The notes below the pieces were generated by a model. The model was not told where the DNA came from and did not search any database. It saw nothing but the letters and a program-made list of their open reading frames with translations. The translations under genes and the position numbers were made by a program. From the NCBI RefSeq assembly GCF_028641065.1, contig NC_073400.1:19468001-19532000 (forward strand): 64,000 nt of DNA. The letters are read 5' to 3'. This document shows, piece after piece, positions 1,317 through 61,110 of the stretch (positions are counted from its first letter, which is position 1; each line of letters opens with the position of its first letter). Origin of the DNA: Leucoraja erinacea. Its lineage: Eukaryota.

Positions 1317-1455
1317 CAATTTCATGAGCGACGGTGAAGGCACTCTGAAGGCCGATGTCCTGGACCACGGCACAGTTCTGACCACCATCCACCTCACACA
1401 CCGTCCCAATGTGGCCAAGCCCCAGCGACTCGCAGAAGTTTTCCTGACAGAGGTT
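1317..1455 (-). CDS. ADAMTS-like exon ending in the start of the zinc-binding motif (HEIG)
   Basis: 139 nt; acceptor ccgtcag, donor GTAATC; NLCQENFCESLGLGHIGTVCEVDGGQNCAVVQDIGLQSAFTVAHEI(G). Confidence 0.9.
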
Positions 1456-4400
1456 CTGACGGGTCAATGGCACCGAGGTGTTAATGCTGTTAGATATTGT
1501 ACAGACTGTGTACAGTGAGAGTGTGCAGAGAAAGAGGGTGCATAGACAGTGTATGGTCAGTTTACAGAGAGAGTGTACAGGGACAATGGACAGAGAGTCA
1601 TTGTACTTAGAGAGATAGTACAGCCAGTGTAGAGATACACAGAGACCATGTGCAGGGTATACAGAGATTTTATAGAGTGTGCAGAGAGAGTGTACAGCGA
1701 GCGCGTACAGTCAGCAGGGCCGGATTTAGATGAAGAGAGGCCCTAAGCTATTTCTCTTGGGAGGCCACCCCCCCCCTCCCAATCCCCCACCCCCACAACT
1801 ACAAGGCCATGACTACCCGAAAGTGACAGTGTGACACTTTTAGATCCTACTGTATGTTATCATTGAACAGTTGGTTTCAAAATCCATATTGGATTCACCG
1901 CGGAGCCTTACCTGGATCGCCATTTGAAGCTGGAGTGTTGGGCCTGTGGCAGGGATGGAGGTTGGGGCCGGAGGAAGGCAGGTGAGTGGACTGAGGTCGA
2001 GGCGATGTCTAGTGGAGGGGTGGTGGGTGGTCAGGGGGGAAGGGGTATGAGGACTGTAGTGTGGGTGGGGAAGAGCTGGGGTCACATGGTTTGAGGGGAA
2101 TGGGGAAGACCCAGTGGAACAGCCACTGAGGTTACCAGGGTTGGGGGGCCTAGCACTAAGACCCAGCGCAGTCAAACCCAGGGGAGTGGGAGTCTGCAGC
2201 GTGGAAACTTCAGGCCCGGTGCTGAGTCCAGGCTGCAGGTAAGGAGACTGCTGCGGGCTGCTGGAGGGCGGTGGAGTGGCTAGGGTCATCGGGCAAAGAG
2301 TAGGAGGTCCCGGTGGGCTGATGGTCAGTGAGGCAGCGAGGTGAGTAGCCCCCCCTAGATCTCGAGGCTCTAAGCTTAAGCTTGTCTACCTTATACGTAA
2401 ATCCGGCCCTGACAGTCAGTGTACAGACAGTGTACAGAGAGAGTGTATAGAGATTATGTAGAGGGTGTACAGAGACTTGTCGAGTGTGGAAAGAGAGCGT
2501 ACAGAGAACGCATGGAGAGAGTTTAGAGATAGGGATATGACGCGGAAACAGGCCCTTCGGCCCACCGAGTCCCGACGCCGACCCCTACACACACTAGGGA
2601 CAATTTTTACATTTGCACGCCTTTGGAGTGTGGGAGGAAAGCGAAGATCTCGGAGAAAACCCACGTGGTCACGGGGAGAACGTACAAACTCCAAACAGAC
2701 AGGACCCGTAGTCAGGATCGAACTCGGGTCTTTGGTGCTGAAAGCGCTGTAAGGCAGCAACTCTACCGCAGTCAGTGTACAGGGGCAGTGTACGGAGACA
2801 GTGTATAGAGACAGTCAGTGTACAGAGAGAGTCAGTGTACAGATATCCCCCCTGAGAGCGAGGGACTCTGTGACACCGATCAGTGTACAGAGATGAATGT
2901 AATACCATGATAAAAGAATTACGACTGCAAGAAACTCCCTTGTAAAGACTAAAAAAGGATTGTAAAACATGCATGAGTGATTACCAAATTCATGAGCGAT
3001 GGGGAAGGCGCTCTGAAGGCCAATGTCCTGGACCATGGTGCAGTGTAGACAGATTATGTTGGAACATTTGTACCTATTTTTATGAGTTGTTGTCACAGTG
3101 TTTGTGTGTGTGGTTACTGAAGCAGAATTGTGGTCTTGAGCGGATTTGTGAGAGGCAACTCAGAAAGCTTTGGTTCTGTCTGACCACATTGTATTTGTCA
3201 GCAGTTCCAGAGCCTCCTTGATTTTTTATTGCTGCTTTAAGGTCCTTTGCAAAGGAATGTGGCAGAGCCCAATAAACAAGGGCTGCCAAAAATAAGAGAG
3301 GAGAGAGGGAGGGAGGGGTGGAGAGAGGGGCAGAGAAGGGTGGAGAGAGGGAGAGAGGAGTGGAGAGAGGGGGAGAGAATAGTGGAGGGAGATGGAAGGA
3401 AGGGAGGTGAGAGATATAGGGTGAGAGTGAGGGAGAATGAGTGGGAGGGGGGGGAGCGAGAGAGAGAGGGATAGAGAGAGAGAGGCAAAGAGAGAGAATT
3501 GAGAGGTTAAAGAGGGAAAGGGGAGTGAAAAGTGTTGGGAGAGAGAGAGAGTGTAAGAGAGAACAGAGGAAGGGAGAGATTGGGGGAAGGAGGGGGATCG
3601 AGAGAGAGAAGGAGGGTGAGATTGAGAGAGTGTGTGTTCGACCCCATGTGAGTGTGACTCTGACAAGTGACTCTGAGCTGGGCGGCCTTGCTGTGACAGT
3701 GAATCCTGTGAATGTGAGCACGGTGTCACACCATTGATTGTGAGTCCTGTCTGTCTGATCCAGGTAAGTGTGAGCACAGCAAGAATGGTGAGCATGAGTG
3801 ATCCTGGCAGCTGTAAGCAATGTGGGTGTGGGTCCAGTAAGTGTGACCCAGTGATGTGACTGTGGTGAGTGTGACCACAGATTTAATGCAAGATGAGTGC
3901 GAAGCTAAGTACAGAGGATTGAGAATGGCGAGTGTACGCTGGCAGATGTGACTGAGTGTGCCCCTGCAGGTGTGATTTTATGAGTGTTGGCAGTGTGACC
4001 CGGCAGGTGTATGCAGCCAGTCTGACACAGTGTAAACATTGATGTGCAGGGACAGCAAATGTGTCCCAATCAGCCTGAGTTGGCGAGTGACCCAGGATGT
4101 GTGCCCTGGTGAGTGTGTCACTGTAAGTGTGTCAAGGTAAATGTTCCCATCGAGTGTGCCCTGGTGAATGTGCCTTTGTGGGTGCACTGATGGATGTGCT
4201 ACGGTGTGTGTCATGATGTGTGTGCCCTAGCCTCAGTGCACAGACCCCAGTGAGTGTGCCCTGGTGAGTGTGCCCCAGTGGGTGTGCCCTGGTGAGTGTG
4301 CCCCAGTGAGTGTGCCCCAGTGAGTGTGCCCCAGTGGGTGTGCCCTGGTGAGTGTGCCCAGTGGTTAGGTGAGTGCCCCAGTGAGTGAGTGTGCCCCAGT

Positions 4401-4953
4401 GAGTGTGCCCTGGTGGGTGTGCCCCAGTGAGTGTGCCCTGGTTAGTGTGCCCCAGTGAGTGTGCCCCAGTGGGTGTGCCCTGGTGAGTGTGCCCTGGTGG
4501 GTGTGCCCTGGTGGGTGTGCCCTGGTGGGTGTGCCCTACCTCTCGTGTCAGCAGCAGGGCAGCATCGTACGGTGCCTCTCCCCAGTCTCCCATTTGCCGC
4601 CGTTCCCGCTGCCAGCGGCAGAAGGCGTGCAGAGTTTGCCTGGCGTCGGGAACGACCCGCGGACCCATGGCCTGGTCCCACACCACCTCCAGCCGGCTGA
4701 CCACCAGCCTCACTGCGCTGCCCAGCGACGGGTGCCGGTACAGCCGATCCGCCGCTCCCAGCAGCGCCAGCACATAGGGGCGCACCTCCCCACCCAGTGC
4801 GTGCGCCAGACCCACGTCCACCACCACCAGCAGCTCCACCCGCCGCAGCCGGGACGTGCCCACCACCATCCCCTGCTGCCCTCGTGCCCCCGGCTGCCTC
4901 CTCGCCCCCAACACCAGCAAGCACCACAGTCCCAGCGACCGTCCCAACATCAT
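1317..4953 (-). CDS. ADAMTS-family (ADAMTS4-like) zinc metalloprotease, 5' part; coding exons 4953-4540 and 1455-1317, continuing beyond position 1
   Basis: The exon translations match the ADAMTS1/4 reprolysin domain (VELLVVVD...HPSL...LVVSRL...FCRWQ...YDAALLLTRE | NLC...LGLGHIGTVC...CAVV.D.GLQSAFTVAHEIG). GT-AG boundaries have phases 0 and 1, as in ADAMTS4. ADAMTS4 identity is inferred from proximity to NDUFS2/FCER1G; the sequence is too divergent to assign a symbol. Confidence 0.85.
1715..2411. mobile_element. Non-autonomous hAT-type DNA transposon (MITE)
   Basis: TIRs CAGGGCCGGATTTA...TAAATCCGGCCCTG with a perfect 8-bp TSD ACAGTCAG (1707-1714, 2412-2419). Confidence 0.9.
2880..3045 (-). 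pseudogene. Partial intragenic duplicate of the ADAMTS HEIG exon 3' half plus its downstream intron
   Basis: CTMVQDIGLQSAFPIAHEFG followed by GTAATC, and flanking intron similar to ~1215-1375. The 5' half of the exon and its acceptor are absent. Confidence 0.8.
4150..4538. repeat. ~14-bp minisatellite (GTGAGTGTGCCCCA / GTGGGTGTGCCCTG)
   Basis: Tandem copies are visible directly and run up to the ADAMTS splice donor. Confidence 0.9.
4540..4953 (-). CDS. ADAMTS-like exon: putative signal peptide, short linker and N-terminal half of the metalloprotease domain
   Basis: MMLGRSLGLWCLLVLGARRQPGARGQQGMVVGTSRLRRVELLVVVD...YDAALLLTRE. Donor GTAGGG at 4539. Pyrimidine-rich acceptor (ctcacccctgcag) immediately upstream of 4975. 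Confidence 0.85.
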
Positions 4954-5209
4954 CCCCAAAACCCTCGCCTCCCCACTGCAGGGGTGAGCAGGGGTGTCGA
5001 GGGTGAAGAGGGCAGGGTAGGGATGTGCAGCGTGGCGTGGCGGGGCCTGGCACAGCCTGGCACGGTGCTGGAACCCTGGTCCGTAATCGGAGGCTGCTTA
5101 CAAGACGTCCCGAGCCCAAGATCAAGCTCCAGATGACACGTCCCATCCACGAGGTAGGCGGGAGCGAGGAGTGCAGCCAGAAACTCTCAAAGTTGGCAGC
5201 CTGTCCCTC

Positions 5210-5830
5210 TCAGTGTTAACCCTCTCCCCATCCACATCCCGGGCAGACCGTTCCCCATACGAGTAAATTAACCCTTCCCCACCCACACCCGGGGCACCCG
5301 CTCCCTCTCAGTGTAAACTCTCTCCCCATCCACACCCAGCAACCCATTCCCCATTGAAGAGGGCGAACCCCCCTCTCTCCGCACACATCCCAGGCAGATT
5401 ACTGCCTCTTCACAAGGGATTCATCCTCTCAATCACCATTCACTATGTAAGGACACCTGGCAGCACGTTCCCTGCCAGAGAGGATTAACCAGCTGAAAAT
5501 TAAGGACATCAAGCTGCCCGCTCCCTGTCAGAGGAGATTAACCCTCTCACCTCCATCCACATCCCTGGCTCCCGTTACCCATCAGTTAAACTCTCTCCCT
5601 GTCCACACTGCAGGCCACCCGTTCCACATCCGTGAGATTAACCCTCTCAACCCATCTCCTCACCCCCTTTCACAGGGGTTTAACCCTCTCACTCAGAGGA
5701 GATTAACCTCTCATTCGCCACTCGCAAGGTAAGCATGTTCCCTGCCAGAGGGGATTAACGTTCTCACCCCCTATCTCCACCCACACTCAGACATTAGTTC
5801 CCAGTCAGGGGGGATTACCCCGCTCACAAT
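5210..5830. repeat. Degenerate ~55-60 bp tandem repeat with a TTAACCCTCTC core
   Basis: Recurrent (GA)TTAACCCTCTC...CCACA motifs at roughly regular spacing. Confidence 0.6.
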
Positions 5831-7286
5831 GTAAGGACGTTGCAGAGCCAGTTCTGTGAAGTACACATTAGTCGCTGAACGACACTGGGAATAATTGATT
5901 CAATATGTACCTCCGCTTGCAGATCTGTGTGCCAGATGCTGTCTCCAAAGTTGAGTCGGCCTTGGCACACGTCCCTGCGCTATCTGTTACCCGACTGAAA
6001 TTCTTGAAATAATTATCTTGATCGTAATGTTTTGAACAGAATAATGCCACATGTACAAAAGTTATATTGAATTCACACGGACAGTAACATGATTGGAAAC
6101 AGAGTTCCCTCTCACACACACACTGACATCCTGATTCTTGGTTTCCTGCTCCTCCAAGATTATTCCAAATGGAATTTAAACTGGAGGTGGCGGATCACTA
6201 ATAAAAGAATGTTCCTCACACCAGGCCTCACACAAACGGACATCGCAACTGAAGGAGCATTGGCACTGGCAAATGCAGGTGCTGCTTTACAAGAAAAGAG
6301 ACAAGGTGCTGGAGGAAATTAGTGACTCAGGTAGCATTTTCGGAGAATGTGATGTTTTTCCTCGCGACTCTTCTTCAGAATGGAAGGTTCCCACACACCT
6401 GGACTCACACTGAAATGACCACTTCTTCTTGCGTATGCCATGCACAGCCTAAAGTTGTAGGACAACTTGTTCCATTTGATCTTACTTGATTGTGCACGTC
6501 AGGTTGATTGCATTCGTCGATACAGGGCGGACCACGTGAAGGTTGCAATCTCTCACCCCAAATGACCACTGTGCCCTGCCAATGGGAAACGGGCTGCCCT
6601 GTATATGGATGGGAGAGGTGGGTGAGAGTTAATGTTCCTGGGATGATTCATTTGTTTGTGTTTGTGGCTCTCTCTCTCTGGTTACTCTGCCACGTTTTGG
6701 AAGGAGTTTAATCATTTTTTTTCTTAGTTCTGTTATTTGATCTCCTCTTACAATGCTGATGTTGGCTTCACTCTGTGTCCCAGTTGGCTCAGCTCTCTGT
6801 GTGGTCAGTCTTGCGTGTATCGTTCCCCGGCTGTCTGTGGACTATGCGCAGGTGGCCAGACCTTGTTTAATCTCCTTCTTCTCTTCCCACAATGGTGTGG
6901 GCAATCTCCTGAGGACAGGTAGAGAGAGAAGGGGGTCAGATATAGGGGAGGAGTGGGGAATTTGAGAAAGAGAGAGAGGGGACAACACGACCAAAGCTGC
7001 CTTTGTGGCAGTTTACAAAGATACAGACATCAATTTTACAATAACGTCATCATCATCAACAATAAACTCAGCCTCCCATGGCGAAGGCCTCTAAAGTCCC
7101 CGTGGGCACCGCGTGTTCCATCTCCAGGGACACGCGGGCACGGACATAGGCACGGAAAAGGGGCAGGTAGCCGTCCCTGGTGTGGCCATCGACTACCAGC
7201 TGCCTGGACCCGCAAATGGCCATGTCTAAAATCAATATACAGCGCAAACAGGAAGTGTTGAAGATTATACTTTTAATTATATAGAT

Positions 7287-8297
7287 AACTATACTAAGTG
7301 GGACCCGTTGGGTCACATGTTCACACGGGAGGGCTGGTCCACCAACACAACATTCCACCTCTCCACAAATTCCAAGATTGCTGGCCAGTTGGGGGGGGGG
7401 GGGGGGGGCTTTCTGCAGCACTGGCATGGGTGTTGTGGGCCAAAGGGACTGGTTTCCAGAGGGCTAATATGGATATTGTGGGCCAAATGGATTCTTGGGC
7501 TGGAAGCTCAGTCACTCAGGCCTGGCAGCTCAGTAACTCAGGCCTGGCAGCTCAGCAACTCAGGCCTGACAGGTCAGAAACGTCCAGAAATTCTGCCGAA
7601 AACAGACGAGAGACTGTTAGAGGGACGGGGGAGAGGGTTGGCAATCAATTTTAACCATTTTCATCTTTTTTTACAGTTGCAAAAGGCATAGTGTTGAAAT
7701 AGGCACACAGTTGCAAAAGGCACAGTTTAAAATACATAAAGGGTACTCACAAGTCAGTATACTCAGTGTTCTGTACATTTCCAGCTCAGGCTGAGAGCCT
7801 TTCACTCCCCATCTTGTAGAGACGGAGCTTTTCATTTCAAACCAACCACATTTTCTTTTCAATTCAAACTAACCACCGTTCAAACTTGATTATCAAACGA
7901 CAATAAGGGCACTCACAGGTCAGTAAAACGACACTCACAGTTTAGTAGACATGTGTTCAGTGTTATTCCCAGCTCAGACTGAGAGATGTGACCTCTCGTT
8001 CCCCCATCTTGCAGAGACTGAGGCACGTCCACACTTCCGGGTTTTATAGTCCCTCCCTACTCCCACTGAAAGTGGCATGACCTCCATGACGTGATTGACA
8101 GGAGAGAATCTCAACATTTTTTAAACATTAATAAGTTTTTTTTTCATCGATGGGAAAAATCCTCTGGTCCTGCGGAGTGGAGGGGGACTCTGAGTAAGAT
8201 GGCCAAAAGTCACAGCCGTAAGTGGTAGTGTTTTTTGTAAAATCAATATGCGGTGCAAACAGGAATTGGTTAAGATCAGACTTTTAATTATATAGAT
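7287..8297 (+). mobile_element. Non-autonomous Helitron/Helentron-like (HINE-type) element; a second truncated copy ends at ~7286
   Basis: Starts with ACTATACTAAGTGGGACCCGTTGGGTC (short hairpin) and ends with ...CTTTTAATTATATAGAT. The same 3' end occurs at 7225-7286. The class assignment is inferred. Confidence 0.45.
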
Positions 8298-8776
8298 ATC
8301 ACTAGCAAAGAAGGTTAAGAAAAATTCCATTTAATTTTATAAATGTGAGTGAGTGAGTGAGAGAGTATCCAGGTGGAATAGTTTGGCCCATGAAGGACCA
8401 AGGGAGCAATCTATGCATGGAACCAGAGTGTGAATGAAATCTTAAATTTATACATTAGAGATACAGTGCAGAAACAGGCTCTTCAGCTCACTTAGTCCGT
8501 GGCGACCATGTTCTGGGATCATTCTGGGTCTGGGTCTCTGGTGCTATAAGGTCGTAACTCTACCGCTACGCCACTGTGTTGCCCAAAATCCTTCCCATCT
8601 GCATTCACTAAGGACAAAGACGTACAGGTGGAGAATTCAGGAAGGGGATTGGGGTTATTCAAGAGTCAAGCGTGTTTTATTGTCATATGTCCCAGATAGA
8701 ACCATGAAATTCTTACTTGCAGCAGCCCAGCAGAATGTGTGTGCATATACACATACTCACTTATACACAGATAATC

Positions 8777-8821
<45 letters not shown>

Positions 8822-10866
8822 ACGTACATATAAACCAACAAATAATAATAGTGTCATAATAACAATAATAGTCTATGTAGTTCAGAGCTTATTTGGAGGT
8901 TGTAGTGTTTAATAGCCTAATGGCTGTTATTGCAGGACATGTATTCAGAATGTCACCAGAACGTGCGCCTAAGGTAGCAATGACATGGCAATGTGACAGA
9001 AGAATGAAAAGCGATTGACCAAAACACACATGGAGGCGAACATTCCAGAAGGATTTGGAAGCCCGGGACGCAAACCTATCGAGGGTGGAAGAGGTCGCAC
9101 TTAACCGAACAGAATGGTGAAAGCTTGCTGCCCAATGCACTCAACGGAGTGGGAGGAACTGCGTCTAAGTCTGAGTTGTGGCTGTAGGGAAGAAGCTGTT
9201 CCTGAACCTGGACGTTACTGTTTTCAGGCTCCTGTACCCTCTTCCCAATGGCAGGGGTGAAATGAATGTGTGACCAGGGTGGTGTCAGTCTCTGATGATG
9301 CTGGCTACATTTTTGAGGCAGTTCTTATATGAATCCCTTTGATGATGGGCAGGTCAGAACCCGTCATGGACTGGGCAGCGTGCACAACTTTTTACAGTAT
9401 CCTTCGCTCCTGGGCATTCAAGTTGCCGAACAAGGCTGAGATGCAACGTCAATATAGTCTATCTACTGTACACCTGTAGAAGTTCATCATAGTTTCATCA
9501 TTAGAAAGGTGGACGTGATGGCTTAGCAGGCTGAGAGGTGGATAAATCCCCAGGGCCTGATGAGGTATATCCTATTTGTGGAAGGCAAGGGAGGAAATTG
9601 CTGGATCTCGACCAATAATTTCAAATCTTTTACCAGCCACAGGTGAGGCATGAGACAAACGACTACAGGACAATGAATATTAAACCTTCATTCAAAGGGA
9701 CAGCAGGAATAAGTCTGGAAATTATCAGTCAGTGAGTCTATAATATCAATGGAAGGGTAGTCGCTAAAACAATTCCTATGGACAGGATTACGTTTGATTG
9801 AGATTTTTGAAGAAATAAGAAAAGGTGTTGATATGGACAGTGTGATTGATGTATAGGCAGGAACTGCAGATGCTGGTTTAAACCGAGGATACACACAAAA
9901 TGCTGGAGTAACTCAGCGGGACAGGCAGCATCTCTGGAGAGAAGGAATGGATGCGATACGGGTCTGAAGTAGGGCCTCGATCAGAAACGTCAACCATTCC
10001 ATCGCTCCAGTGTGATTGATGTCGTGTAGACAGACTTCAGCAAGGCCTTTGACAAGGTTCCATGTGGGATACTGCTGGTCAGCAAGGTAACAGCCCACAG
10101 GATCCAAAGCAAGTTTAATCCCACAAGTGTGTGATGCACTTTGGGCGGACTAACAAGGGTAGGACATACAGGGGGAGTAATGAGGAACAGAGGACCTTGG
10201 TATATTTCCAAAGCTGCCTGGAGGTGGCAGTACAGGGTTAAGAAAGGAGACTTGGGTGCTTAAGAGTAAAGGAGCAGGGAGGTTATGGTGCAACTTATAC
10301 CACATTATTCAGGCCACATTTGGAATATCATGTACACTTCTGGTCTCCACATTTACAGGAAGGACGGGATTGCACCATGAAGTGAATACAGCAGAGACTC
10401 CCCTGGATGTTGCCTGGCATAGAACTGATGAAGAAAGAGAGGGTTTAGGGCTGAGGGGGAGGAGATATAAAACGTAGGAATTATGAGGGGAATAGAGGGG
10501 GCATGTAAAGTCCACAGCTGAAGAGTCTGTAGCCAGAAAGCATAGGTTCAGGGTAAGCGGAAGGAGAATTTTTTGTTTCACCAGGATGGTTGCAACCTGG
10601 AACACACTGAGTGAGAGGGTGGTGGAGGAGGACATTCTAAATGCACGTGAATGGCCCAGGGATGTATGGTTATGGACAGTGCAGGGTTAGAAAAGTGGAA
10701 TGAGTAGTAATGGCTACTTGATAATCAGCATGGACACAGGAGGCAAAGATCCCATCCTGGGATACGGGTTACACATAGAGCATAGTTTCCTATGCACTGT
10801 TCCATCACATGATGGTCAGACACCCGGGGATCCACCACCCTCCCTAAACCTGATTCTCACTCTGAC

Positions 10867-11154
10867 CAAATGTGGTCTGTTTACAGACGCCCCTCAGCCA
10901 GATCTCTGCCATGCCCTCACTGACCAGATTCCTGACCTCACACCTGTACACAACGCCACCGACCTCTGCTGTGTGATCAACCTCTACTGTCTCTCCGTGT
11001 CCCCGGGGGTGATGGGTGCTGTCTTTTCCCAGAGGTTCTCGTCCCCTCCAGTACCTGAAGCTGGTGGGGTCGCCGGAGGTCACGGAGGAGGTCAAGGCAA
11101 AGTTACAGATCTCAGTGATGTTCTGAGCCTTAATCTGTGTAACTGCCACGGGCT
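10867..11154 (-). pseudogene. CD2/SLAM-family IgC2 (membrane-proximal) domain exon, copy 1; probably degenerate
   Basis: 288-nt open phase 1-1 exon with acceptor cttctctccgccccaacctcag and donor GTCAGA: EPVAVTQIKAQNITEICNFALTSSVTSGDPTSFRYWRG...GETVEV...YRCEVRNLVSEG...VCKQ. It fits the SLAM domain-2 pattern (C-x-x-x-LTC, YxCxxxNPVS, C-terminal C), but the B-strand Cys is Ser and NPVS is NLVS. Confidence 0.7.
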
Positions 11155-14149
11155 CTGAGGTTGGGGCGGAGAGAAGGAAGATGCGTAAAGGAGATCCTTG
11201 TGGACCCCACGATACCCAACACCCCCATCTCCAACATCCACGAGTGAACTTTAAACCAATCCCAGTTCATTTCCACCCACCAGTTTAACTCTTCCCTCAC
11301 CCCCTTCAGTTCAGCCAGTTGTTTCTGGAGGAAGTCCACAGGTGTGACGTGCTCCCTTCCCGACCACTGCCCGCAATCATCCACAAACTCTACACCGTGC
11401 CCTGTTTATAGCTCTGTGAATCCAGGGAATCTCTCCAGTTCCATATCTTTTGTCACTCCTGTGAGTGGTCCAGGTGTCCCGTATACACCTGAGTGGGACC
11501 AAGCCCAGATTGGCCCTGAACCATCCTAGACTGGGTATTATGTAATAAGGAAGGATTAGTTAGCAATCTTGGGCAACAGTGACCATAATATGGTAGAATT
11601 CTGCATTAGGACGGAGAGTGACACGGTTAATTCAGAGACAAGGATCCTGAACTGAAAGAAGGATCTCGACCCGAAACGATGCCTACTTCCTTCGCTCCAT
11701 AGATGCTGCCTCACCCGCTGAGTTTCTCCAGCATTTTTGTCTACCTTGAACTTAAAGAAAGGTAACTTTGATGGTGAGACAGAAATTGACAAGGATAGAC
11801 TGGCAAATGATACTTAAAGGGTTAATGGTGGATTTAAAGATCACATGGATGAATTACAACAATTGTTCATCCATATCTGGCGTAAAAATAAAACAGGGAA
11901 GGCGGCTTAACCGTGGCTAACGAGGGAAATTAGGGATAATGTTAAATCCAAGGCAGAGGCATATAAATTGGCCAGAGGTGTGTCCCCTCCCATTGGTACG
12001 GAGCTTTTGAATTTTTCAGCTTGAAATTGTGCAATTTGGTGCATACTGTAGCGGGTCTTTTAATTTACACTTGAATGCAATATATATGCTTTAAATTGGA
12101 TTAGCTATGAATAAGGTTAGACTAAATTACATTCCTAATGACATTCCACAATAGAGCCCAGGCTCTGATCAACAGGTGCAACACATGAATGATCTTAGTG
12201 TATTCATGTATGGAAATCAGATTATATTCAAACACTTGGCCCATGTTGACCAACCTGGGTCTCACTGCACACCTGGTACTACTCCTGACCCTGACTCCAG
12301 TTGCATACCTTCTCTCATTCCTGACCCTGAGTCAAGCCTTACACCTGGCCCCCCTATTCTACCCTGATCATAGCTGCTTGCCTGCTTAGGTTCCCAGTGC
12401 TGAACAACCATTGCAACAGAGTGGTTGGGAATGGAGCCACGCAACTGCTGATTCCCCAGCCCTGGTCCCCAGTGGCATTGCCTAGCACCCCTCACTCTGT
12501 TGGGATCTTCCTCCTTCCTCGTCTCCGTTCTTTAACTCAGGCGCCTCAGTGGGGAGGGATGTCAGGGTGAGCAGGAATTTCTAACCTCCTGCAGACAAGA
12601 GAGGAGTGTGTAGCCAGGACTGCAGCAGTCAGCAGTGTGAAAAAGAGAAATGCCCGACTGTAATGGGATCTGCCCTGTTGGACAGGACATAGAGACCCGG
12701 GCCCCAGTCTCAGAGGCCCTCAGTATATTGACTGGTGGCCCTCAGACACTCTCTCTCAGGGGGATACCTGTACACTGACTGCTGTCTCCCAGTCCCTATC
12801 TGAGATGGATATGTGTACACTAGATAGGGAACTTCTGATGGTTAGTGGAGATGTCTTCATGACAGACAAGATAGGCTGATATCCTGCCACACATTGTAAA
12901 CATCCTTTAATTCTCCGAAAGAAGAATTGAGCAAGTAATGAGAAAAGGGGAAATAGAATGTGAGAAGAAGTTGCCAGAAAACAAACAGTGACAATGATTC
13001 AACAGATGACAACATAGAACAGTACAGCTCAGGAACAGGCCCTTCAGCCCACAATTGTTGTGCTTAACATGATACCAAGTGAAACTGATCTCATCTACTG
13101 GTACATGATCCATATCACTTTAGTCCTTGCATCTCCATGTACTAAATACCTCTTAAGCACCACTATTGTATCAGCCTCCACCACCCTGTGTCCTGCACAT
13201 CTTCAACAAACTTTCCTCCTATTACCCTATAGCTATGCCCTCTAGTGCTGAACATTTCCATCCTGGGGAAAATCCTTGATAGGGGACGATCGGCCATGAT
13301 CACAATGAATGGCAGTGCTGGCTCGAAGGGCCGAATGGCCTCCTCCTGCACCTATTTTCTATGGTTCAAAAAGGTTCTGACTGCCTACCCTTTCTAAGCT
13401 GGCCATAATTTTATACGCCTGTATAAAGTTTCCCCTCAACCTCCGATGTTCTTTTTACTGAAACTAGACTGGTGGGAAGCTTAGAAACGAGCAATTGACA
13501 ACATCACCTACCTCAGGATTGTTCAAAATGCAGCTTCCTCAGCATGTTTCTCCTGCTACTCCTTCCATACAAGTCTTTCCCCAAAGGTCAAACCTAGTTG
13601 GGCCCTAAATCAAGCACCTATCTCCAAAGCATCTCAAAATGCCATATGGCCATAAATAGTGGATTTGCTTCCCATTTATGCTTACAGGCGGTTCACAACT
13701 CATTCTTAGTCACGTGTGTGACCAAATATATGAAAACTTATTTTGGAATACATCTCTTCTAATTCTGAAACCATTACAGGTATATTGTTTTGTACCGTAT
13801 ATAGGATTCATATTTTTTTCGAAGTTTATCAAGGGAAATTTTTGTTATGCTGACAATGTTTGGTTAGGGTCTGAGGTCAAATATGACTGGTCACATATGT
13901 GACCTCACGCAGGAGCATTTTTTTCATAACTCAGTTTTATCTTACAAACTGTGAATTTTAAAAAGCTAGAATGTTCATATCTTTAACAGACATGCATTAT
14001 TGTTCTGTAGGTAGGGAAATAGTAATGAATGCGATTCATCTCTTCCAAGAATTATTTAATGTATTACTTTATGATGCCATTTGGTCACGTGTGTGACCTT
14101 TTGGTCCACTTGCCAAAGAATGGCCCAATACCCTGTGTCATCTCAGAGT

Positions 14150-14855
14150 ATAATTGAATTGAATTGAATTGCATTGAATTGAATACATTTTATTCGCCAA
14201 TTATGTATACATACAAGGAATTTGCCTTGGTACTTTGCTCGCAAATAACGACACGATGTACAGTAGACAATTAAAAATAAAACATAATTTAAACATGTGA
14301 AGAATGAAATAAAATACCAGAGGACAAGGAGGCTACAGACTTTTTGGCTGTTGAGTAGAGCGACTGCTCGTGGAAAAAAAAGCTGTTTTTATGTCTGGCT
14401 GTGGCGGCTTTGACAGTCCGGAGTCGCCTTCCAGAGGGAAGTGCTTCAAAGAGTTTTGTGGCCAGGGTGAGAGGGGTCAGGGATGATCAACCTTCTTGGC
14501 TGATCGAACAATGCGTTGCAGCCTCTGGATGTCGTGCTTGGTGGCCGAGCCAAACCAGACCATGATGGAGCAGGTGAGGACAGACTCTATGATGGCCGTA
14601 TAAAACCGGACCATCATTGCCTGTTGCAGATTGTGTTTTCTCAGAAGCCGCAGGAAGTACATCCTCTGTTGGACCTTTTTGATGGTGGCCTCTCATTTAA
14701 GGTTCCTGGAGATGATTATTTCAAGGAACTTAAATGACTTCACAGATGTGACTGTGGTGTTGCTGATGGTGAGTGGGGGGAGGGGAGGGGGAGCGCTCCT
14801 AAAGTCTACAATCAATTCCACTGTCTTAAGAACATCAAGCTCCAGGTTGTTGCAA
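14150..14855 (-). mobile_element. Rex1/Babar-like LINE 3' fragment (also ~19990-20690 and ~27050-27955, continuing at ~28610-28930)
   Basis: RT C-terminal translation (LDVLKTVELIVDFR, YFLRLLRK...FYTAIIESVLT.SI.VWFG, LPSGRR); (CAATT)n tail. Confidence 0.7.
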
Positions 14856-16703
14856 TAAACAACAGGAATGCAGTAGTAGGCCATTCAGCCTTTCGAGCCA
14901 GCTCCGCAAACCTATCGAGGGTGGAAGAGGTCGCACTTAACCGAACAGAATGGTGAAAGCTTGCTGCCCAATGCACTCAACGGAGTGGGAGGAACTACGT
15001 CTAAGTCTAAGTTGTGGCTGTAGGGAAGAAGCTGTTCCTGAACCTGGACGTTACTGTTTTCAGGCTCCTGTACCTTCTTCCCAATGGCAGGGGTGAAATG
15101 AATGTGTGACCAGGGTGGTGTCAGTCTCTGATGATGCTGGCTACATTTTCGAGGCAGTTCTTATGTGAATCCCTTTGATGATGGGGAGGTCAGAACCCGT
15201 CATGGACTGGGCAGCGTGCACAACTTTTTACAGTATTCTTCGCTCCTGGGCATTCAAGTTGCCGAACAAGGCTGAGATGCAACGTCAATATAGTCTATCT
15301 ACTGTACACCTGTAGACGTTCATCATCATTTCATCATTAGAAAGGTGGACGTGATGGCTTAGCAGGCTGAGAGGTGGATAAATCCCCAGGGCCTGATGAG
15401 GTATATCCTATTTGTTGAAGGCAAGGGAGGAAATTGCTGGATCTCGACAAATAATTTCAAATCTTTTACCGGCCACAGGTGAGGCATGAGACAAACGACT
15501 ACAGGACAATGAATATTAAACCTTCATTCAAAGGGACAGCAGGAATAACTCTGGAAATTATCGGTCAGTGAGTCTATAATATCAATGGAAGGGTAGTCGC
15601 TAAAACAATTCCTATGGACAGGGTTAGGTTTGATTGAGTTTTTTGAAGAAATAAGAAAAGGTGTTGATATGGACAGTGTGATTGATGTATAGGCAGGAAC
15701 TGCAGATGCTGGTTTAAACCGAGGATACACACAAAATGCTGGAGTAACTCAGCGGGACAGGCAGCATCTCTGGAGAGAAGGAATGGATGGCGTTACGGGT
15801 CTGAAGTAGGGCCTCGATCAGAAACGTCAACCATTCCATCGCTCCAGTGTGATTGATGGCATGTAGACAGACGTCGGCAAGGCCTTTGACAAGGTTCCAT
15901 GTGGGATACTGCTGGTCAGCAAGGTAACAGCCCACAGGATCAAAAGCAAGTTTAATCCCACAAGTGTGTGATGCACTTTGGGCGGACTAACAAGGGTAGG
16001 ACATACAGGGGGAGTAATGAGGAACAGAGGACCTTGGTATATTTCCAAAGTTGCCTGGAGGTGGCAGTACAGGGTTAAGAAAGGAGACTTGGGTGCTTAA
16101 GAGTAAAGGAGCAGGGAGGTTATGGTGCAACTTATACCACATTATTCAGGTCACATTTGGAATATCATGTACACTTCTGGTCTCCACATTTACAGGAAGG
16201 ACGGGATTGCACCATGAAGTGAATACAGCAGAGACTCCCCTGGATGTTGCCTGGCATAGAACTGATGAAGAAAGAGAGGGATTGGGGCTGAGGGGGAGGA
16301 GATATAAAATATAGGAATTATGAGGGGAATAGAGAGGGCATGTAAAGTCCACAGCTGAAGAGTCTGTAGCCAGAAAGCATAGGTTCAGGGTAAGGGGAAG
16401 GAGAATTTTTTGTTTCACCAGGATGGTTGCAACCTGGAACACACTGAGTGAGAGGGTGGTGGAGGAGGACATTCTAAATGCACGTGAATGGCCCAGGGAT
16501 GTATGGTTATGTACAGTGCAGGGTCAGCAAAGTGGAATGAGAAGTAATGGCTACTTGATAATCAGCATGGACACAGGAGGCAAAGATCCCATCCTGGGAT
16601 ACGGGTTACACATAGAGCATAGTTTCCTATGCACTGTTTCATCACATGATCCTCGGACACCCGGGGAACCACCTCCCTCCCTAAACCTGATCCTCACTCT
16701 GAC

Positions 16704-16991
16704 CAAATGTGGTCTGTTTACAGACGCCCCTCAGCCAGATCTCTGCCATGCCCTCACTGACCAGATTCCTGACCTCACACCTGTACACAACGCCACCGAC
16801 CTCTGCTGTGTGATCAACCTCTACTGTCTCTCCTTGTCCCCGGGGGTGATGGGTGCTGTCGTTTCCCAGAGGTTCTCGTCCCCTCCAGTAGCTGAAGCTG
16901 GTGGGGTCACCGGAGGTCACGGAGGAGGTCAAGGCAAAGTTACAGATCTCAGTGATGTTCTGAGCCTTAATCTGTGTAACTGCCACGGGCT
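16704..16991 (-). pseudogene. CD2/SLAM-family IgC2 exon, copy 2
   Basis: Same 288-nt phase 1-1 exon with a few substitutions (SFSYWRG, LGNDST, GQGE). Confidence 0.7.
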
Positions 16992-19900
16992 CTGAGGTTG
17001 GGGCGGAGAGAAGGAAGATGCGTAAAGGAGATCCTTGTGGACCCCACGATACCCAACACCCCCATCTCCAACATCCATGAGTGAACTTTAAACCAATCCC
17101 AGTTCATTTCCACCCACCAGTTTAACTCTTCCCTCACCCCCTTCAGTTCAGCCAGTTGTTGCTGGAGGAAGTCCACACGTGTGACGTGCTCCCTTCCCGA
17201 CCACTGCCCGCACTCATCCACAAACTCTACACCGTGCCCTGTTTATAGCTCTGTGAATCCAGGGAATCTCTCCAGTTCCATATCTTTTGTCACTCCTGTG
17301 AGTGGTCCAGGTGTCCCGTATACACCTGAGTGTGACCAAGCCCAGATTGGCCCTGAACCATCCTAGACTGGGTATTATGTAATAAGGAAGGATTAGTTAG
17401 CAATCTTGGGCAACAGTGACCATAATATGGTAGAATTCTGCATTAGGATGGAGAGTGACACGGTTAATTCAGAGACAAGGATCCTGAACTGAAAGAAGGA
17501 TCTCGACCCAAAACGTTGCCTATTTCCTTCGCTCCGTAGATGCTGCCTCACCCGCTGAGTTTCTCCAGCATTTTTGTCTACCTTGAACTTAAAGAAAGGT
17601 AACTTTGATGGTGAGACAGGAATTGACTAGGATAGACTGGCAAATGATACTTAAAGGATTAATGGTGGATTTAAAGATCACATGGATGAATTACAACAAT
17701 TGTTCATCCATATCTGGCGTAAAAATAAAACAGGGAAGGCGGCTTAGCTGTGGCTAACGAGGGAAATTAGGGATAATGTTAAATCCAAGGCAGAGGCATA
17801 TAAATTGGCCAGAGGTGTGTCCCCTCCCATTGGTACGGAGCTTTTGAATTTTTCAGCTTGAAATTGTGCAATTTGGGGCATACTGTAGCGAGTCTTTTAA
17901 CTTACACTTGAATGCAATATATATGCTTTAAATTGGATTAGCTATGAATAAGGTTAGACTAAATTACATTCCTAATGGCATTCCACAATAGAGCCCAGGC
18001 TCTGATCTACAGGTGCAACACATGAATGATCTTAGTATATTCATGTATGGAAATCAGATTATATTCAAACACTTGGCCCATGTTGACCAACCTGGGTCTC
18101 ACTGCACACCTGGTACTACTCCTGACCCTGACTCCAGTTGCATACCTTCTCTCATTCCTGACCCTGAGTCAAGCCTTACACCTGGCCCCCCTATTCTACC
18201 CTGATCATAGCTGCTTGCCTGCTTAGGTTCCCAGTGCTGAACAACCATTGCAACAGAGTGGTTGGGAATGGAGCCACGCAACTGCTGATTCCCCAGCCCT
18301 GGTCCCCAGTAGCATTGCCTAGCACCCCTCACTCTGTTGGCATCTTCCTCCTTCCACGTCTCCGTTCTTTAACTCAGGCGCCTCAGTGGGGAGGGATGTC
18401 AGGGTGAGCAGGAATTTCTAACCTCCTGCAGACAAGAGAGGAGTGTGTAGCCAGGACTGCAGCAGTCAGCAGTGTGAAAAAGAGAAATGCCCGACTGTAA
18501 TGGGATCTGCCCTGTTGGACAGGACATAGAGACCCGGGCCCCACTCTCAGAGGCCCTCAGTATATTGACTGGTGGCCCTCAGACACTCTCTCTCAGGGGG
18601 ATACCTGTACACTGACTGCTGTCTCCCAGTCCCTATCTGAGATGGATATGTGTACACTAGATAGGGAACTTCTGATGGTTAGTGGAGATGTCTTCATGAC
18701 AGACAAGACAGGCTGATATCCTGCCACACATTGTAAACATCCTTTAATTCTCCGAAAGAAGAATTGAGCAAGTAATGAGAAAAGGGGAAATAGAATGTGA
18801 GAAGAAGTTGCCAGAAAACAAACACTGACAATGATTCAACAGATGTGAACATAGAACAGTACAGCTCAGGAACAGGCCCTTCAGCCCACAATTGTTGTGC
18901 TTAACATGATACCAAGTGAAACTGATCTCGTCTACTGGTACACGACCCATATCACTTTAGTCCTTGCATCTCCATGTACTAAAAACCTCTTAAGCACCAC
19001 TATTGTATCAGCGTCCCCCACCCTGTGTCCTGCACATCTTCAACAAACTTTCCCCCTATTACCCTATAGCTATGCCCTCTAGTGCTGAACATTTCCATCC
19101 TGGGGAAAATCCTTGATAGGGGACGATCAGCCATGATCACAATGAATGGCAGTGCTGGCTCGAAGGGCCGAATGGCCTCCTCCTGCACCTATTTTCTATG
19201 GTTCAAAAAGGTTCTGACTGCCTACCCTTTCTAAGCTGGCCATAATTTTATACGCCTCTATAAAGTTTCCCCTCAACCTCCGATGTTCTTTTTACTGAAA
19301 CTAGACTGGGGGGAAGCTTAGAAACGAGCAATTGACAACATCACCTACCTCAGGATTGTTCACAATGCAGCTTCCTCAGCATGTTTCTCCTGCTACTCCC
19401 TCCATACAAGTCTTTCCCCAAAGGTCAAACCTAGCTGGGCCCTAAATCAAGCACCTATCTCCAAAGCATCTCAAAATGCCATATGGCCATAAATAGTGGA
19501 TTTATTTCCCATTTTTGCTTACAGGCGGTTCACAACTCATTCTTAGTCACGTGTGTGACCAAATATATGAAAACGTATTTTGGAATACATCTCTTCTAAT
19601 TCTGAAACCATTACAGGTATATTGTTTTGTACCGTATATAGGATTCATATTTTTTTCGAAGTTTATCAAGGGAAATTTTTGTTATGCTGACAATGTTTGG
19701 TTAGGGTCTGAGGTCAAATATGACTGGTCACATATGTGACCTCACGCAGGAGCATTTTTTTCATAACTCAGTTTTATCTTACAAACTGAATTTAAAAAAG
19801 CTAGAATGTTCATATCTTTAACAGACATGCATTATTGTTCTGTAGGTAGGGAAATAGTAATGAATGAGATTCATCTCTTCCAAGAATTATTTAATGTATT

Positions 19901-25900: not shown

Positions 25901-26060
25901 AAATAATGTTGCAGAGTTCTACTTTGTTGATTGGATGAGGTATTGAGCCTTGTTTGGGTTCCTTGCAGATCAGGGTAAATGTTTCTAAGTTGGCTTCCTT
26001 GAGAAGTCCGGTGTGAATACAATGTATTGAGCTGCTGTATTATTGGGTTAGGGGAATGTC

Positions 26061-26398
26061 TGTTATGTATGGGGTTAATTGATATCTGTATTTGGATTAT
26101 TAAGAGACCACCCTCATGTGGTTCGGCCCCTCGAGGTCCCGGGACCTATAAAGGTCCGCTACCATGAGATCTTCTGGGAGAGCGCTAGGGACTGCGTGAC
26201 TTTCTGGAGTATCTCTGCCTGAGCGAGGCCTAGAGGACTTGATCAGGCAGATACGAAGATCGAACCGCGATGTGATAGATACAGTAGTTGAACTGTAATG
26301 CGCTTTTGCTAAAATAAAGATCAGTTGTTTCAAGTGCTTGATTCAGTGTTTTTACTGAAACTAGACTGGGGGGAAGCTTAGAAACCAGCAATTGACAA
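26061..26398 (+). mobile_element. Solo LTR-like sequence; only its 3' end is kept in repeat units 1 and 2
   Basis: Begins TGTTATG, contains TATAAA and AATAAA, ends near ...CA. No TSD found. Confidence 0.45.
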
Positions 26399-27702
26399 CA
26401 TCACCTACCTCAGGATTGTTCAAAATGCAGCTTCCTCAGCATGTTTCTCCTGCTACTCCCTCCATACAAGTCTTTCCCCAAAGGTCAAACCTAGTTGGGC
26501 CCTAAATCAAGCACCTATCTCCAAAGCATCTCAAAATGCCACATGGCCATAAATAGTGGATTTACTTCCCATTTATGCTTACAGGCGGTTCACAACTCAT
26601 TCTTAGTCACGTGTGTGACCAAATATATGAAAACTTATTTTGGAATACATCTCTTCTAATTCTGAAACCATTACAGGTATATTGTTTTGTACCGTATATA
26701 GGATTCATATTTTTTTCGAAGTTTATCAAGGGAAATTTTTGTTATGCTGACAATGTTTGGTTAGGGTCAGAGGTCAAATATGACTGGACACACATGCGAC
26801 CGCACGCAGGAGCATTTTTTTCATAACTCAGTTTTATCTTACAAACTGTGAATTTTAAAAAGCTAGAATGTTCATATCTTTAACAGACATGCATTATTGT
26901 TCTGTAGGTAGGGAAATAGTAATGAATGAGATTAATCTCTTCCAAGAATTATTTAATGTATTGCTCTATGATGCCATCTGGTCACGTGTGTGACCTTTTG
27001 GTCCACTTGCCAAAGAATGGCCCAATACCCTGTGTCATCTCAGAGTATAATTGAATTGAATTGAATTTAATTGAATTGAATACATTTTATTAGCCAATTA
27101 TGTATACATACAAAGAATTTGCCTTGGAACTTTGCTCGCAAATAACGACACGATATACAGTAGACAATTAAAAATAAAACATTATAATTTAAACATGTGA
27201 AGAATGAAATAAAATACCAGAGCACAAGGAGGCTACAGACTTTTTGGCTGTTGAGTAGAGCGACTGCTCGTGGGAAAAAAAGCTGTTTTTATGTCTGGCT
27301 GTGGCGGCTTTGACAGTCCGGATTCGCCTTCCAGAGGGAAGTGCTTCAAAGAGTTTGTGGCCAGGGTGAGAGGGTTCAGGGATGATCAACCTTCTTGGCT
27401 GATCGAACAATGCGTTGCGGCCTCTGGATGTCGTGCTTGGTGGCCGAGCCAAACCAGACCATGATGGAGCAGGTGAGGACAGACTCTATGATGGCCGTAT
27501 AAAACCGGACCATCATTGCCTGTTGCAGATTGTGTTTTCTCAGAAGCCGCAGGAAGTACATCCTCTGTTGGACCTTTTTGATGGTGGCCTCTCATTTAAG
27601 GTTCCTGGAGATTATTATTTCAAGGAACTTAAATGACTTCACAGATGTGACTGTGGTGTTGTTGATGGTGAGTGTGGGGGAGGGGAGGAGGAGCGCTCCT
27701 AA

Positions 27703-36000: not shown

Positions 36001-39000
36001 CACTGATGTTTACAGCTGGGTGGAGTTGTTACAACAGGACGCTGTTGTTGAGGTGTTGTTGAGGCCGAGAGACAGTGTGAGAGAGCTGGATTAACATTAC
36101 AGCCTTAGCTCCAGAGACTCGGATTCTATCTCATCGCTAGCTGTCCACTCACCTTCAGACGGCAGTACAGAGCCGTTAACACCGTCCCATAGATGAACAG
36201 AACGGCGTCCAGGACGTAACAGATCCCGGGCTCCTGCAGTCCAGCTGCTGAGAAAGAGGTGAGTGAGGATCAGAGGATGTCGAACACAGTAGGATCCAAA
36301 TGAGAGGTACCGGGTAGCTTCCCGTCTCGTGGCGTACAAATTGACGCCAGGCATCAGCGGAGCGGTCCATTGGGAACAGCCCCATTGGGAGAGACCGTTG
36401 GTCGGTGAAGTGTAAAGTTTTTATATCTCCTTTTAATGTCTATTTGTAATTGTTTCATTTTATACGTAAGACAATCAGGGGCTGGTGTGTACGAGCAATT
36501 TACGTTTAGGTTAGCTACTGTCGGCATATTATATTATTTTGTCTATATATATTTTGCAGTATTATTTTGGACACTTGGGGGGGGGGGGGTTATTAATGCA
36601 CAGAGGGCATTGTGGACAGGGAGGGGCAGAACAGGCACAGGGGTGGAGAGCATACAGTTTTCACCAGACCGGGACGAACAGCAAGCTACAACTTGTATGC
36701 TGAATAAGGAAAACCTGGTACATTCACCTCTTTGTTTGTACAACTACTTCAATAAAGAACCAATAAATAATGACTGGAAAATCTGTTCTATTTGGTCTGC
36801 ATAAGATCATTCCTACTTACCTGTGTTAGTAATGGCAACGGGAAGTTGGACACTGGAAGAGTGGGAAAGTTGCCATTACATTTAAGCGAAAAACTAGCTC
36901 CGTGAAACTGGAGCAAGTGAAAACCTGGGAACAAGGATTGTTTTACTTCACCAGCCTGACGCCGCCATTCCCGATCAAACTGGTCACGGTCGCCACCTTC
37001 GCTAATCTGACTAACGGAGATTGGAAACCTCAAAAGCCGACGCGCAGGGAGAAGGAGCACGTACAGCATTAAGGTGTATTAGTGACGCTATATATAAGCT
37101 GTATTGGAAACCGGTTACTAAAATGGAGAATTGAGAAGTGACCTTGAGAATCAGAGCGATATCAGCCGTTTGAAATACCAGCCGCAGGCATACGGCTTTC
37201 ACATCAAGGAAACTTAAAGGGATAGTGGACAAGTATGTCTAAAGCTCAGTTACAAGATGGCGATGTTGGAAAGGATTCTGAAAAGGAAAGAAGAGTTATT
37301 AAACACAATGACAAAGGCTGGGACTTGTTCGTGGAAAAGTGTCTGGAGACCAGATACTCGATGTGTAAACAAGCTAACAAGTTAATTGAAAAGTTGAACG
37401 AGCTCATGAAATCAAAGGAGAATGAAAATGAAGTACAATCTAACCTGGTTCAATTACTCAAGCTCTATGGTCAGTGAAAACCATCAGTTATTGGGAATGT
37501 ACCACTGCCTGAAAAGGAGCCTGAAAGGTAAAATCAGTGGTTTGAACTGAAAATGGATTTTTTTTATGACTTTATACAAGATGTAAGGGTGTGGTTATCT
37601 GATATTGGACAGCAAGCTACACACCCCATAGCTGAAAGTGCCATGCAACAGTGTTGTAAACTCAGATGAAATTGGACCTGATGACAGCGTCTCAAAACCT
37701 AAATTATGCCACAAATCATGAGCATCTTCAATGGCCTCTGCTCTTATTAACGCTCAGGCAGATAGGGGCTGCTCTCTTGGACTGGGCTGCTGCCATATGG
37801 GGGGGGGGGGGGGGAGCACAAGTTTGAAGCACAAGAGGGACAGTTGAAAAGAGAGATGGGACAGTTGGAACTAGAGACCGAGCTGGCAGCAGCCAATGCA
37901 AGGATCAATATACTTTTTGCCAAGGGATCAAAAGAAACAGCTCGAGTATCTGATGGGATGAAATCTTACTTGAAAAAAAGGAACTGCTCAAAGTGATGCA
38001 TCAGCTAAATTAAATCCACGTGCAAATGAATACTTACCTGATCAATTGCAACAAAGTCAAAATGTGTTGATGGGAACTGAATCCTCCTCCCAGCAACTGG
38101 TTGTTAGACCAAAACAAACAACTCGTGGAGCATCTGTTAGAGCTCACGGTAAGACCCATCTAACTCAATATTCTCTTCATGGGCAAAATGTACAGACATA
38201 ACTGCTCTTCTGGCTCAACAAAATCTCTCTTCTACTTTAGAGACATTCCTGTTTATGATGGTGATCCTTTGCAGTGTGAAGTTTACATCGGGGCATTTGA
38301 GAGAGTAGTGAAAAGCAAAACTAATGATAAGAGTGGTTGGTTGCAATTTCTAGAGCAGTACACAAGAGGGTATGCAAAAGACCCTCTTTGAGTGGCCAAC
38401 ATTTTTGGATCATAGAAGCTAATCGAGCTTTTGCACAGAAAGCTTGATGGGAAGGCAGAAAATTACCGGACAAAAGACTAGTATTCTCTGGCGTACCATG
38501 AACCAGGTGAAGCCTGTGATCAGTCACCATATCTCAGGTTTGGAAATATCTAGTCTGGACAAAGACAATGTCATTCAACTATCTGGTGTGTTCACACACA
38601 AGACCTTGCCTGTTTCTCAGCTGAACATTCCCAGACGGGAAGAAGGATATCAAGATTCCTGAAATAGACTCATGGGGACAAATGCTTAAAAAGTATTGGA
38701 ACCTTGGGAGCTGGCCAACAGCTAAGAGAATGGACCATGCGCTGTGAAGACCCCACTGGGGTGGGTCATCTATGGTCCCCTGAGAAGAGACAACAAAAGC
38801 AGGGATGAAAATGGCTGCGCTGCTGCTGCTGTCAATCGAGTATCCATTGTAAAGCTAGAGGTGCTACTTGTCAAGCAATATAATCATGACTTCAGTGAAA
38901 GAACCAGCAAGCAAGAAATATCCAGAGAAAATGTAAAGTCCTTGGATATTACGAACCTCTCATCAAAGATGATAGATGAATTGTCTAGACTTACCTTTCA

Positions 39001-46365: not shown

Positions 46366-61110
<14,745 letters not shown>

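Follow-up and report, generated by a model that had tools for sequence, protein, structure and literature searches.

Introduction

The prodomain of the cartilage protease ADAMTS5 (aggrecanase-2) spans 245 residues and carries a putative cysteine-switch residue and a polybasic site, and the mechanism by which aggrecanase prodomains inhibit their enzymes is stated to be unknown, the putative switch cysteines being described as never mutated (PMC9620172). A single short-propeptide exception, ADAMTS13, is treated as such in reviews of the family (PMC6706451, PMC4448532). Its propeptide, which is removed, confers no latency and is dispensable for folding (PMC6706451, PMC8275829), and the enzyme further carries seven additional TSRs as well as CUB domains and a gatekeeper triad considered unique to this protease. 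ADAMTS9 and ADAMTS17, on the other hand, are reported not to be secreted without their propeptides (PMC8275829).

As far as the active site is concerned, ADAMTS4 and ADAMTS5 are described as switching between two forms, one open and bound to calcium, the other closed and free of it (PMC4448532). With respect to the history of the family, ADAMTS4 (aggrecanase-1), located at 1q21-q23 in human (PMC1867822), has been portrayed as a lone copy that has no tandem partner and is kept only in lobe-finned fish and tetrapods; the word 'shark' is absent from the main text of that study (PMC4349717).

Here, we analyse an ADAMTS gene that begins in a stretch of 64,000 nucleotides from the skate Leucoraja erinacea (hereafter the window) and of which no description was found in the literature searched. 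From our point of view, the gene is best read as an intact eight-exon zinc protease gene, sister to ADAMTS5, whose product has neither a prodomain nor the usual furin site and is likely secreted after removal of the signal peptide alone, and its activation would not require a convertase; we give this reading a probability of roughly 70%.

Gene structure and transcripts

The gene consists of eight exons with AG/GT ends (Table 1), whose lengths of 414 (coding part of exon 1), 139, 168, 275, 187, 164, 176 and 916 nt add up to 812 codons with one terminal stop, and from the double Met on, the product does not differ from the database protein P0006. A sequence-only reading of the window had proposed that a signal-like stretch, a short linker, RLRR and the start of the catalytic domain share one exon. 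This arrangement is indeed found at 4953-4540 (-), where ATG ATG leads into the hydrophobic stretch and the linker; RLRR and 100 residues from the beginning of the reprolysin domain come next, up to a GT donor after 4540. The exon 1 product matches Pfam PF01421 (E 4e-5), shares 97% identity with a protein of Amblyraja radiata and, among solved structures, finds ADAMTS5 best (E 3e-20, 76 bits), followed by ADAMTS1 (70) and ADAMTS4 (65). The domain order of the whole product is M12B, disintegrin-like, TSR, cysteine-rich and spacer (Pfam PF17771, PF00090, PF19236 and PF05986 for the disintegrin-like domain, central TSR, cysteine-rich domain and spacer), then a Pro/Thr/Ser-rich stalk of 119 residues and one TSR. 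The order down to the single C-terminal TSR, the eight exons, the intron phases (0,1,1,0,1,0,2, those of skate ADAMTS5) and the one first exon are all as in ADAMTS5 (PDB 3B8Z, 2RJQ, 6YJM).

Table 1. Features of the gene and its surroundings. Positions are those of the window unless a contig is given.
Feature	Position	Strand	Remarks
Upstream ATG of database gene model	5144..5146	-	Out of frame, stop after 222 codons; beyond the RNA contigs
5' leader	4954..5075	-	Continuous with exon 1, no ATG; contains AG at 4977-4976, unspliced in contigs
Exon 1, coding part	4540..4953	-	138 codons: signal, 14-residue linker, first half of metalloprotease domain; phase-0 GT donor; joined to exon 2 start in X1 contig
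Predicted signal peptide	4903..4953	-	Residues 1-17 with hydrophobic core at 7-17; likely cleaved after Ala17; shared by the sawfish and manta orthologues
Residual linker	4861..4902	-	Residues 18-31, at the ADAMTS5 prodomain position; no Cys, no R-x-x-R beside mature start
RLRR	4840..4851	-	Residues 35-38; mature N-terminal segment entering first beta-strand, not a canonical furin site
Decayed partial copy of exon 2 3' end and donor	2892..3044	-	Within intron 1; 78% identity; skipped in RNA-type contig
Exon 2	1317..1455	-	139 nt; S2' loop, QDIG, first half of zinc motif
Exons 3-5	G000:C24 19466935-19466768, 19457940-19457666, 19457584-19457398		Left of window
Exons 6-8	G000:C24 19456600-19456437, 19454813-19454638, 19453160-19452245		Left of window
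FCER1G/CD247-family transmembrane exon	36147..36233	-	PF11628; synteny marker
NDUFS2 exons	49250..51025	-	PF00346; synteny marker

Splicing can be followed in contigs of the runs X1 (a related skate) and X2, which we guessed to be RNA, a guess that is backed by their spliced joints. A 2,519-nt contig of X1 passes from 4540 directly into the opening letters of exon 2 and also contains exons 4-8, all exactly joined; the 306 nt left over fit the length of exons 2 and 3 (307). Run X2 adds one spliced joint. Given the 812-codon reading frame over eight exons and the exact contig joints, the gene is intact and spliced; a pseudogene is ruled out, as neither a stop nor a frameshift interrupts the 812 codons. 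Transcript start and rare isoforms are not visible in contigs of this type, and four raw-read runs are uninformative on expression, start and tissue (0 reads on exon 1 in X11 and X18, almost no depth on exons 4-8 in X13 and X15).

At the 5' end, an acceptor at 4976 had been taken to imply an upstream exon. The AG is present, but nothing is seen to splice into 4975: a second X1 contig (4743-5036) and an X2 contig (4920-5075, no differences) both run straight through it. The site is also unremarkable in its surroundings: of the YAG sites in 4954-9000, six others reach 15 or more pyrimidines out of 20, a count that the one at 4976 falls short of. Between 5146 and 4953 there is no further ATG, the frame is closed by a stop 49 codons upstream of the start, and the 'low quality' tag of the database model P0006 accompanies its start at the out-of-frame ATG at 5146.

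Some features of the surroundings may be recorded here. A simple tandem repeat (about 4250-4530) follows immediately past the exon 1 donor, no Rfam family was found in the window, and between the gene and FCER1G (9069-27703) a unit of about 5.8 kb occurs in about three copies of about 98% identity, by tandem duplication or as an assembly artefact. The Mobula orthologue models P0005 and P0007 stop before the last TSR, which could be a matter of annotation or a genuine alternative end.

The N-terminal region

The signal peptide is predicted from a Kyte-Doolittle maximum of 2.35, the (-3,-1) rule and the alignment, and it is conserved in all five batoids. Only 14 residues separate it from the mature start, so that the skate protein has no prodomain of the canonical ADAMTS kind. 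The absence of an upstream prodomain exon, which the sequence-only reading had also noted, holds over a far larger region. Since Pfam PF01562 lacks the sensitivity for prodomains of the ADAMTS5 type, we built a profile of 23 hyalectanase prodomains; it gave no match in the 464 kb that surround the gene (the best of 14,657 ORFs having E 0.24) and matched the prodomains of all four paralogues used as controls (E 8e-58 to 2e-19). Ten ADAMTS queries over the same 464 kb had the skate gene as their sole match. PF01562 itself has 16 matches in the genome, none of them on the contig of the gene, which is the weaker test because the skate ADAMTS5 prodomain is missed by it as well. In skate ADAMTS5 and ADAMTS8 (for the latter, the first exon was checked), signal, prodomain and catalytic start lie in one open exon; in ADAMTS1 and ADAMTS15 they are split.

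The RLRR motif had been proposed as a furin site that ends a propeptide. This interpretation does not hold, as the motif aligns with the mature N-terminus of ADAMTS5, is not conserved and overlaps strand 1. At its position, 108 ADAMTS5 sequences have RARH (59), RARQ (29), KSRH (7), RLRH (1) and others, none of which ends in Arg. RLRR itself is confined to the two skates, the rays and sharks having RTRQ, RTRH or LTRH (sawfish RTRQ, mantas RTRH), within an S-R-x-R-x-V-E-type mature N-terminus as in ADAMTS5. A 12-row alignment shows no variation at Ser34, Arg37 and Val39, and since the first strand is modelled at residues 37-45, a cut after Arg38 would fall within it. RLRR nevertheless formally fits R-x-x-R, and cleavage in skates might occur. 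The true furin-site position lies seven residues before RLRR and is occupied in sharks and empty in batoids.

A separate observation concerns the signal sequence at 4909-4953 (-), which, aligned in register from the start codon, shares 32 of 45 nt with the signal of skate ADAMTS5 (contig C13), a value reached by 2 of 20,000 codon shuffles in a post-hoc test, with no match upstream. The shark orthologues have signals that resemble neither that of the skate gene nor that of skate ADAMTS5, and the likeness could reflect chance, old homology or gene conversion.

Orthologues and stepwise loss of the prodomain

Among the matches listed, 12 database proteins are orthologous, all from elasmobranchs (five skates and rays, seven sharks) and carrying the database names ADAMTS4 or ADAMTS5-like. 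The best 120-150 matches listed include neither a chimaera or bony-fish orthologue nor a cartilaginous-fish ADAMTS4, which is weak evidence in both cases. Ahead of the mature-equivalent start, the batoids have 24-31 residues (5/5) and the three sharks with a complete N-terminus 65-70, compared with a median of 238.5 in ADAMTS5 (108 of 110 sequences); of the other sharks, P0012 has the same stub without the signal and three are incomplete. A furin site stands directly before the mature start in none of the five batoids, in all three of these sharks and in 107 of 108 ADAMTS5.

The shark stub thus ends in R-x-x-R immediately before an ADAMTS5-like mature start, and it contains a Cys that aligns with the putative cysteine-switch segment of ADAMTS5. 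As the prodomain profile scores shark and bird stubs only faintly (E 0.2-2.2), it is the alignment that points to homology with the switch segment. In the AlphaFold model of a shark orthologue, residues 1-88, propeptide included, are predicted to be disordered. The batoid orthologues have neither the putative switch Cys nor the furin site and, unlike ADAMTS5 with its prodomain and polybasic site (PMC9620172), no equivalent of either.

Judged from these sequences, the loss of the prodomain is conserved and stepwise, from a full prodomain to the shark stub to almost nothing in skates and rays, and its completion is seen in batoids only. What had been proposed as a minimal propeptide with a furin site therefore describes the shark orthologues and not the skate protein, while the broader proposal of a lineage-restricted, intact ADAMTS without the prodomain of about 200 residues agrees with the 812-codon frame, the elasmobranch orthologues and the empty profile search.

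A comparable state exists in bird ADAMTS4, where 30 of 33 database models have at most 80 residues before the catalytic domain and 24 of 33 an adjacent R-x-x-R (models P0133, P0285, P0306-P0334, P0337, P0344, P0368). The about 47 residues found there consist of a signal and a stretch of about 28 residues that contains a single Cys and a furin site, a stub like that of the shark form, whereas skates and rays lack both elements. Bird ADAMTS4 is true ADAMTS4 in the tree, so that its loss is independent, and in non-bird ADAMTS4 the prodomain is complete, with a median of 210.5 residues and none of 40 sequences at 80 or fewer. Chicken, duck and zebra finch are said in a review to lack ADAMTS4 (PMC4448532), which stands against the many bird ADAMTS4 models in the database. 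The ADAMTS1 duplicate P0126 of Arapaima has about 115 residues before the catalytic domain, about half the usual number, through shortening or an annotation error.

Active site and ancillary domains

The zinc motif (HExxHxxGxxHD) is intact in 10 of the 12 orthologues, the remaining two not covering the region, as is the Met-turn wherever it is covered, and the zinc helix reads AHEIGH as in ADAMTS5. A shark model superimposes on ADAMTS5 catalytic structures with a TM of 0.90 and an rmsd of 2.4-2.8. The catalytic domain is nonetheless divergent, as had been noticed from QDIG and LGLGHIG, both present in exon 2 (1455-1317). Three differences from ADAMTS5 are fixed in 10 of 10 orthologues each (DT to ES, MADV to L(G/A)HI, EDDG to QDIG), at positions where ADAMTS5 keeps DT, MADV and EDDG in 110, 107 and 110 of 110 sequences, and LLD is changed to LLN in 11 of 12. 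The fixed differences, among them the altered S2' loop, cluster around the rim of the active site and, to judge from the alignment, could weaken catalysis. The acidic residues lost in the clade are presumably calcium ligands. The Asp replaced here by Glu is the zinc-binding residue of uninhibited ADAMTS4, the autoinhibitory Asp328, so that an acidic residue at this position is shared with ADAMTS4 (PMC9620172).

Outside the catalytic domain, two Cys of the disintegrin-like domain, one pair in ADAMTS5, are lost together (30 instead of 32 Cys in 5 of 6 rows), the KK exosite of ADAMTS5 is KQ or KH, and all 8 orthologues measured have a mucin-like Pro/Thr/Ser stalk of 119-262 residues ahead of the final TSR, compared with 25-28 residues in ADAMTS5. 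The altered rim, Cys pair, exosite and stalk suggest that specificity has probably shifted; the substrates would likely be matrix proteoglycans, though probably not cut at the rates or sites of ADAMTS5.

These changes also lend themselves to a different view, namely that a gene of the same origin encodes a weak or inactive enzyme with a matrix-binding or decoy role, the prodomain having disappeared for want of much activity to hold in check. The fixed changes in the S2' loop and in the segments ahead of the zinc helix, the missing Cys pair, the new stalk and the very long stem of a catalytic-only tree (1.65) would all fit. We nevertheless regard it as unlikely, given that the three His, the catalytic Glu, the next Asp and the Met-turn are retained in sharks and rays and that the furin site and putative switch Cys of sharks suggest an activity worth restraining.

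Two observations on paralogues may be added. The S2'-loop Asp is absent in 25 of 120 listed matches, probably mostly bird ADAMTS4. Batoid ADAMTS5 (P0053, P0029 and the skate gene on G000:C13) has Lys for a conserved Glu in the first strand and lacks the Asp past the last Cys of the catalytic domain; we take these positions to be calcium ligands, and batoid ADAMTS5 may therefore have an altered calcium site.

Phylogeny and genomic neighbourhood

A tree was built from 39 rows and 589 columns of the mature region, with a single row standing for ADAMTS8; near-duplicates (P0003, P0005), partial or mis-predicted proteins (P0011, P0012, P0013, P0039) and a scrambled one (P0381) were omitted. The skate gene and its orthologues form one clade (100/100) that joins ADAMTS5 (100/98) and stays outside a group (96/99) made up of the ADAMTS5 of all jawed vertebrates, cartilaginous and bony. 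Catalytic-only and ancillary-only trees keep the gene with ADAMTS5 (84 and 100), and AU tests on 22 of the 39 rows reject its union with ADAMTS4 (p 2e-5), with ADAMTS8 (p 6e-4) and, weakly, with cartilaginous-fish ADAMTS5 (p 0.03). Because the stem branch of the clade is long (1.13) and the batoid rows are compositionally skewed, the exclusion from ADAMTS4 is more certain than the exact placement with respect to ADAMTS5. Mature-region identity is 41-44% to ADAMTS5 and 38-41% to ADAMTS4. ADAMTS13 belongs to a separate clade (25% identity to the shark model), and by Pfam the skate protein has neither a CUB domain nor a long TSR array.

The gene is not an ADAMTS5 orthologue either, as it is sister to the jawed-vertebrate ADAMTS5 and not inside it and does not lie in the tandem with ADAMTS1. 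The true skate ADAMTS5 is found there, beside ADAMTS1 on C13; ADAMTS8 and ADAMTS15 share C32, and only the present gene is on C24. A coelacanth ADAMTS4 query, after a stricter first look, detected no further locus in the skate genome. Close to the gene lie FCER1G, NDUFS2 and, as a third neighbour, a B4GALT gene assigned by Pfam family, whose identity as B4GALT3 is deduced from its place. NDUFS2, FCER1G and B4GALT3 together make up what we take to be the human ADAMTS4 neighbourhood, the order in the skate being different.

The gene is probably the genome-duplication partner of ADAMTS5 retained in elasmobranchs. That an ADAMTS5 sister resides in the ADAMTS4 neighbourhood points to an ancestral pair that was duplicated with the genome and then underwent reciprocal loss, a course of events that we hold to be quite likely.

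One could also suppose that a younger duplicate of cartilaginous-fish ADAMTS5 moved beside FCER1G and NDUFS2 and that its fast evolution displaced it from the ADAMTS5 clade. The long stem branch, the modest AU rejection at p 0.03, the lack of chimaera and bony-fish orthologues among the matches listed and the likeness of the two skate signals (32/45 nt) speak for such a course. The grouping of jawed-vertebrate ADAMTS5 without the gene (96/99) argues against it, all seven introns are kept, so that the gene is no retrocopy, and a chance landing in the neighbourhood of a paralogue seems unlikely; all in all, we consider this origin improbable, slightly more so than a weak or inactive enzyme.

Descent from ADAMTS4, with furin activation at RLRR after a propeptide of 20 residues, as the sequence-only reading had it, is very hard to maintain: NDUFS2, FCER1G and the B4GALT gene nearby, the lack of another ADAMTS4 in the genome, the R-x-x-R form of RLRR and some database names would favour it, but the AU test, the higher identity to ADAMTS5, the restriction of RLRR to two skates and the location of its bond in strand 1 all oppose it, as do the stalk and TSR after the spacer, where ADAMTS4 has no domain (PMC4349717).

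Discussion

The gene is real, conserved and apparently undescribed, and its evolutionary reading, drawn from comparative sequence data, appears well supported. Under the preferred reading of an ADAMTS5 sister without a prodomain, a gene of the ADAMTS5 type, its signal, prodomain and catalytic start all encoded by one exon, would have been duplicated before the split of cartilaginous and bony fishes, probably with the whole genome, one copy being left in the ADAMTS4 neighbourhood. An in-frame loss inside the single exon would first have removed the folded part of the prodomain, leaving sharks with some 45-50 residues that include the putative switch Cys and the furin site; both of these would then have been lost in batoids. 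We infer that such a loss within one exon would explain the present structure without a change in splicing.

Lacking a prodomain, the skate protein would likely be secreted without needing the usual activating cut, carrying 14 surplus residues and bypassing convertases. ADAMTS13, with its short, non-latent and dispensable propeptide, offers a functional precedent (PMC6706451, PMC8275829), although folding without a propeptide is not guaranteed for the skate protein, since ADAMTS9 and ADAMTS17 need theirs for secretion. Control of latency probably differs from that of canonical ADAMTS and could be exerted by expression and by clearance of the TIMP-3/LRP1 type, as for ADAMTS4 and ADAMTS5. Another possibility is a self-closing S2' loop, in which Glu stands in place of the zinc-binding Asp and a bias towards the closed form could replace prodomain latency.

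Taken further, and put forward only tentatively, the data could mean that elasmobranchs keep a sixth aggrecanase-type gene, the lost duplication partner of ADAMTS5, in place of ADAMTS4; that its batoid form is propeptide-free and shut by its own S2' loop; and that, together with the mini-propeptides of sharks and birds, reduced in both to the putative switch Cys segment and the furin site, it forms a natural deletion series from which the latency-conferring part of the aggrecanase prodomain could be read.

The gene offers three natural states in one lineage, namely a full prodomain, a stub with Cys and furin site, and nothing, with bird ADAMTS4 as a parallel stub, and the question of how aggrecanase prodomains inhibit thereby becomes directly testable. 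As the bird stub is independent, short propeptides outside ADAMTS13 are also less unique than assumed. The locus further suggests paired loci and reciprocal loss, which challenges the published account of ADAMTS4 as a gene that was never part of a tandem pair (PMC4349717). Lastly, an aggrecanase relative that is peculiar to animals with lifelong cartilage skeletons would be of interest for cartilage biology.
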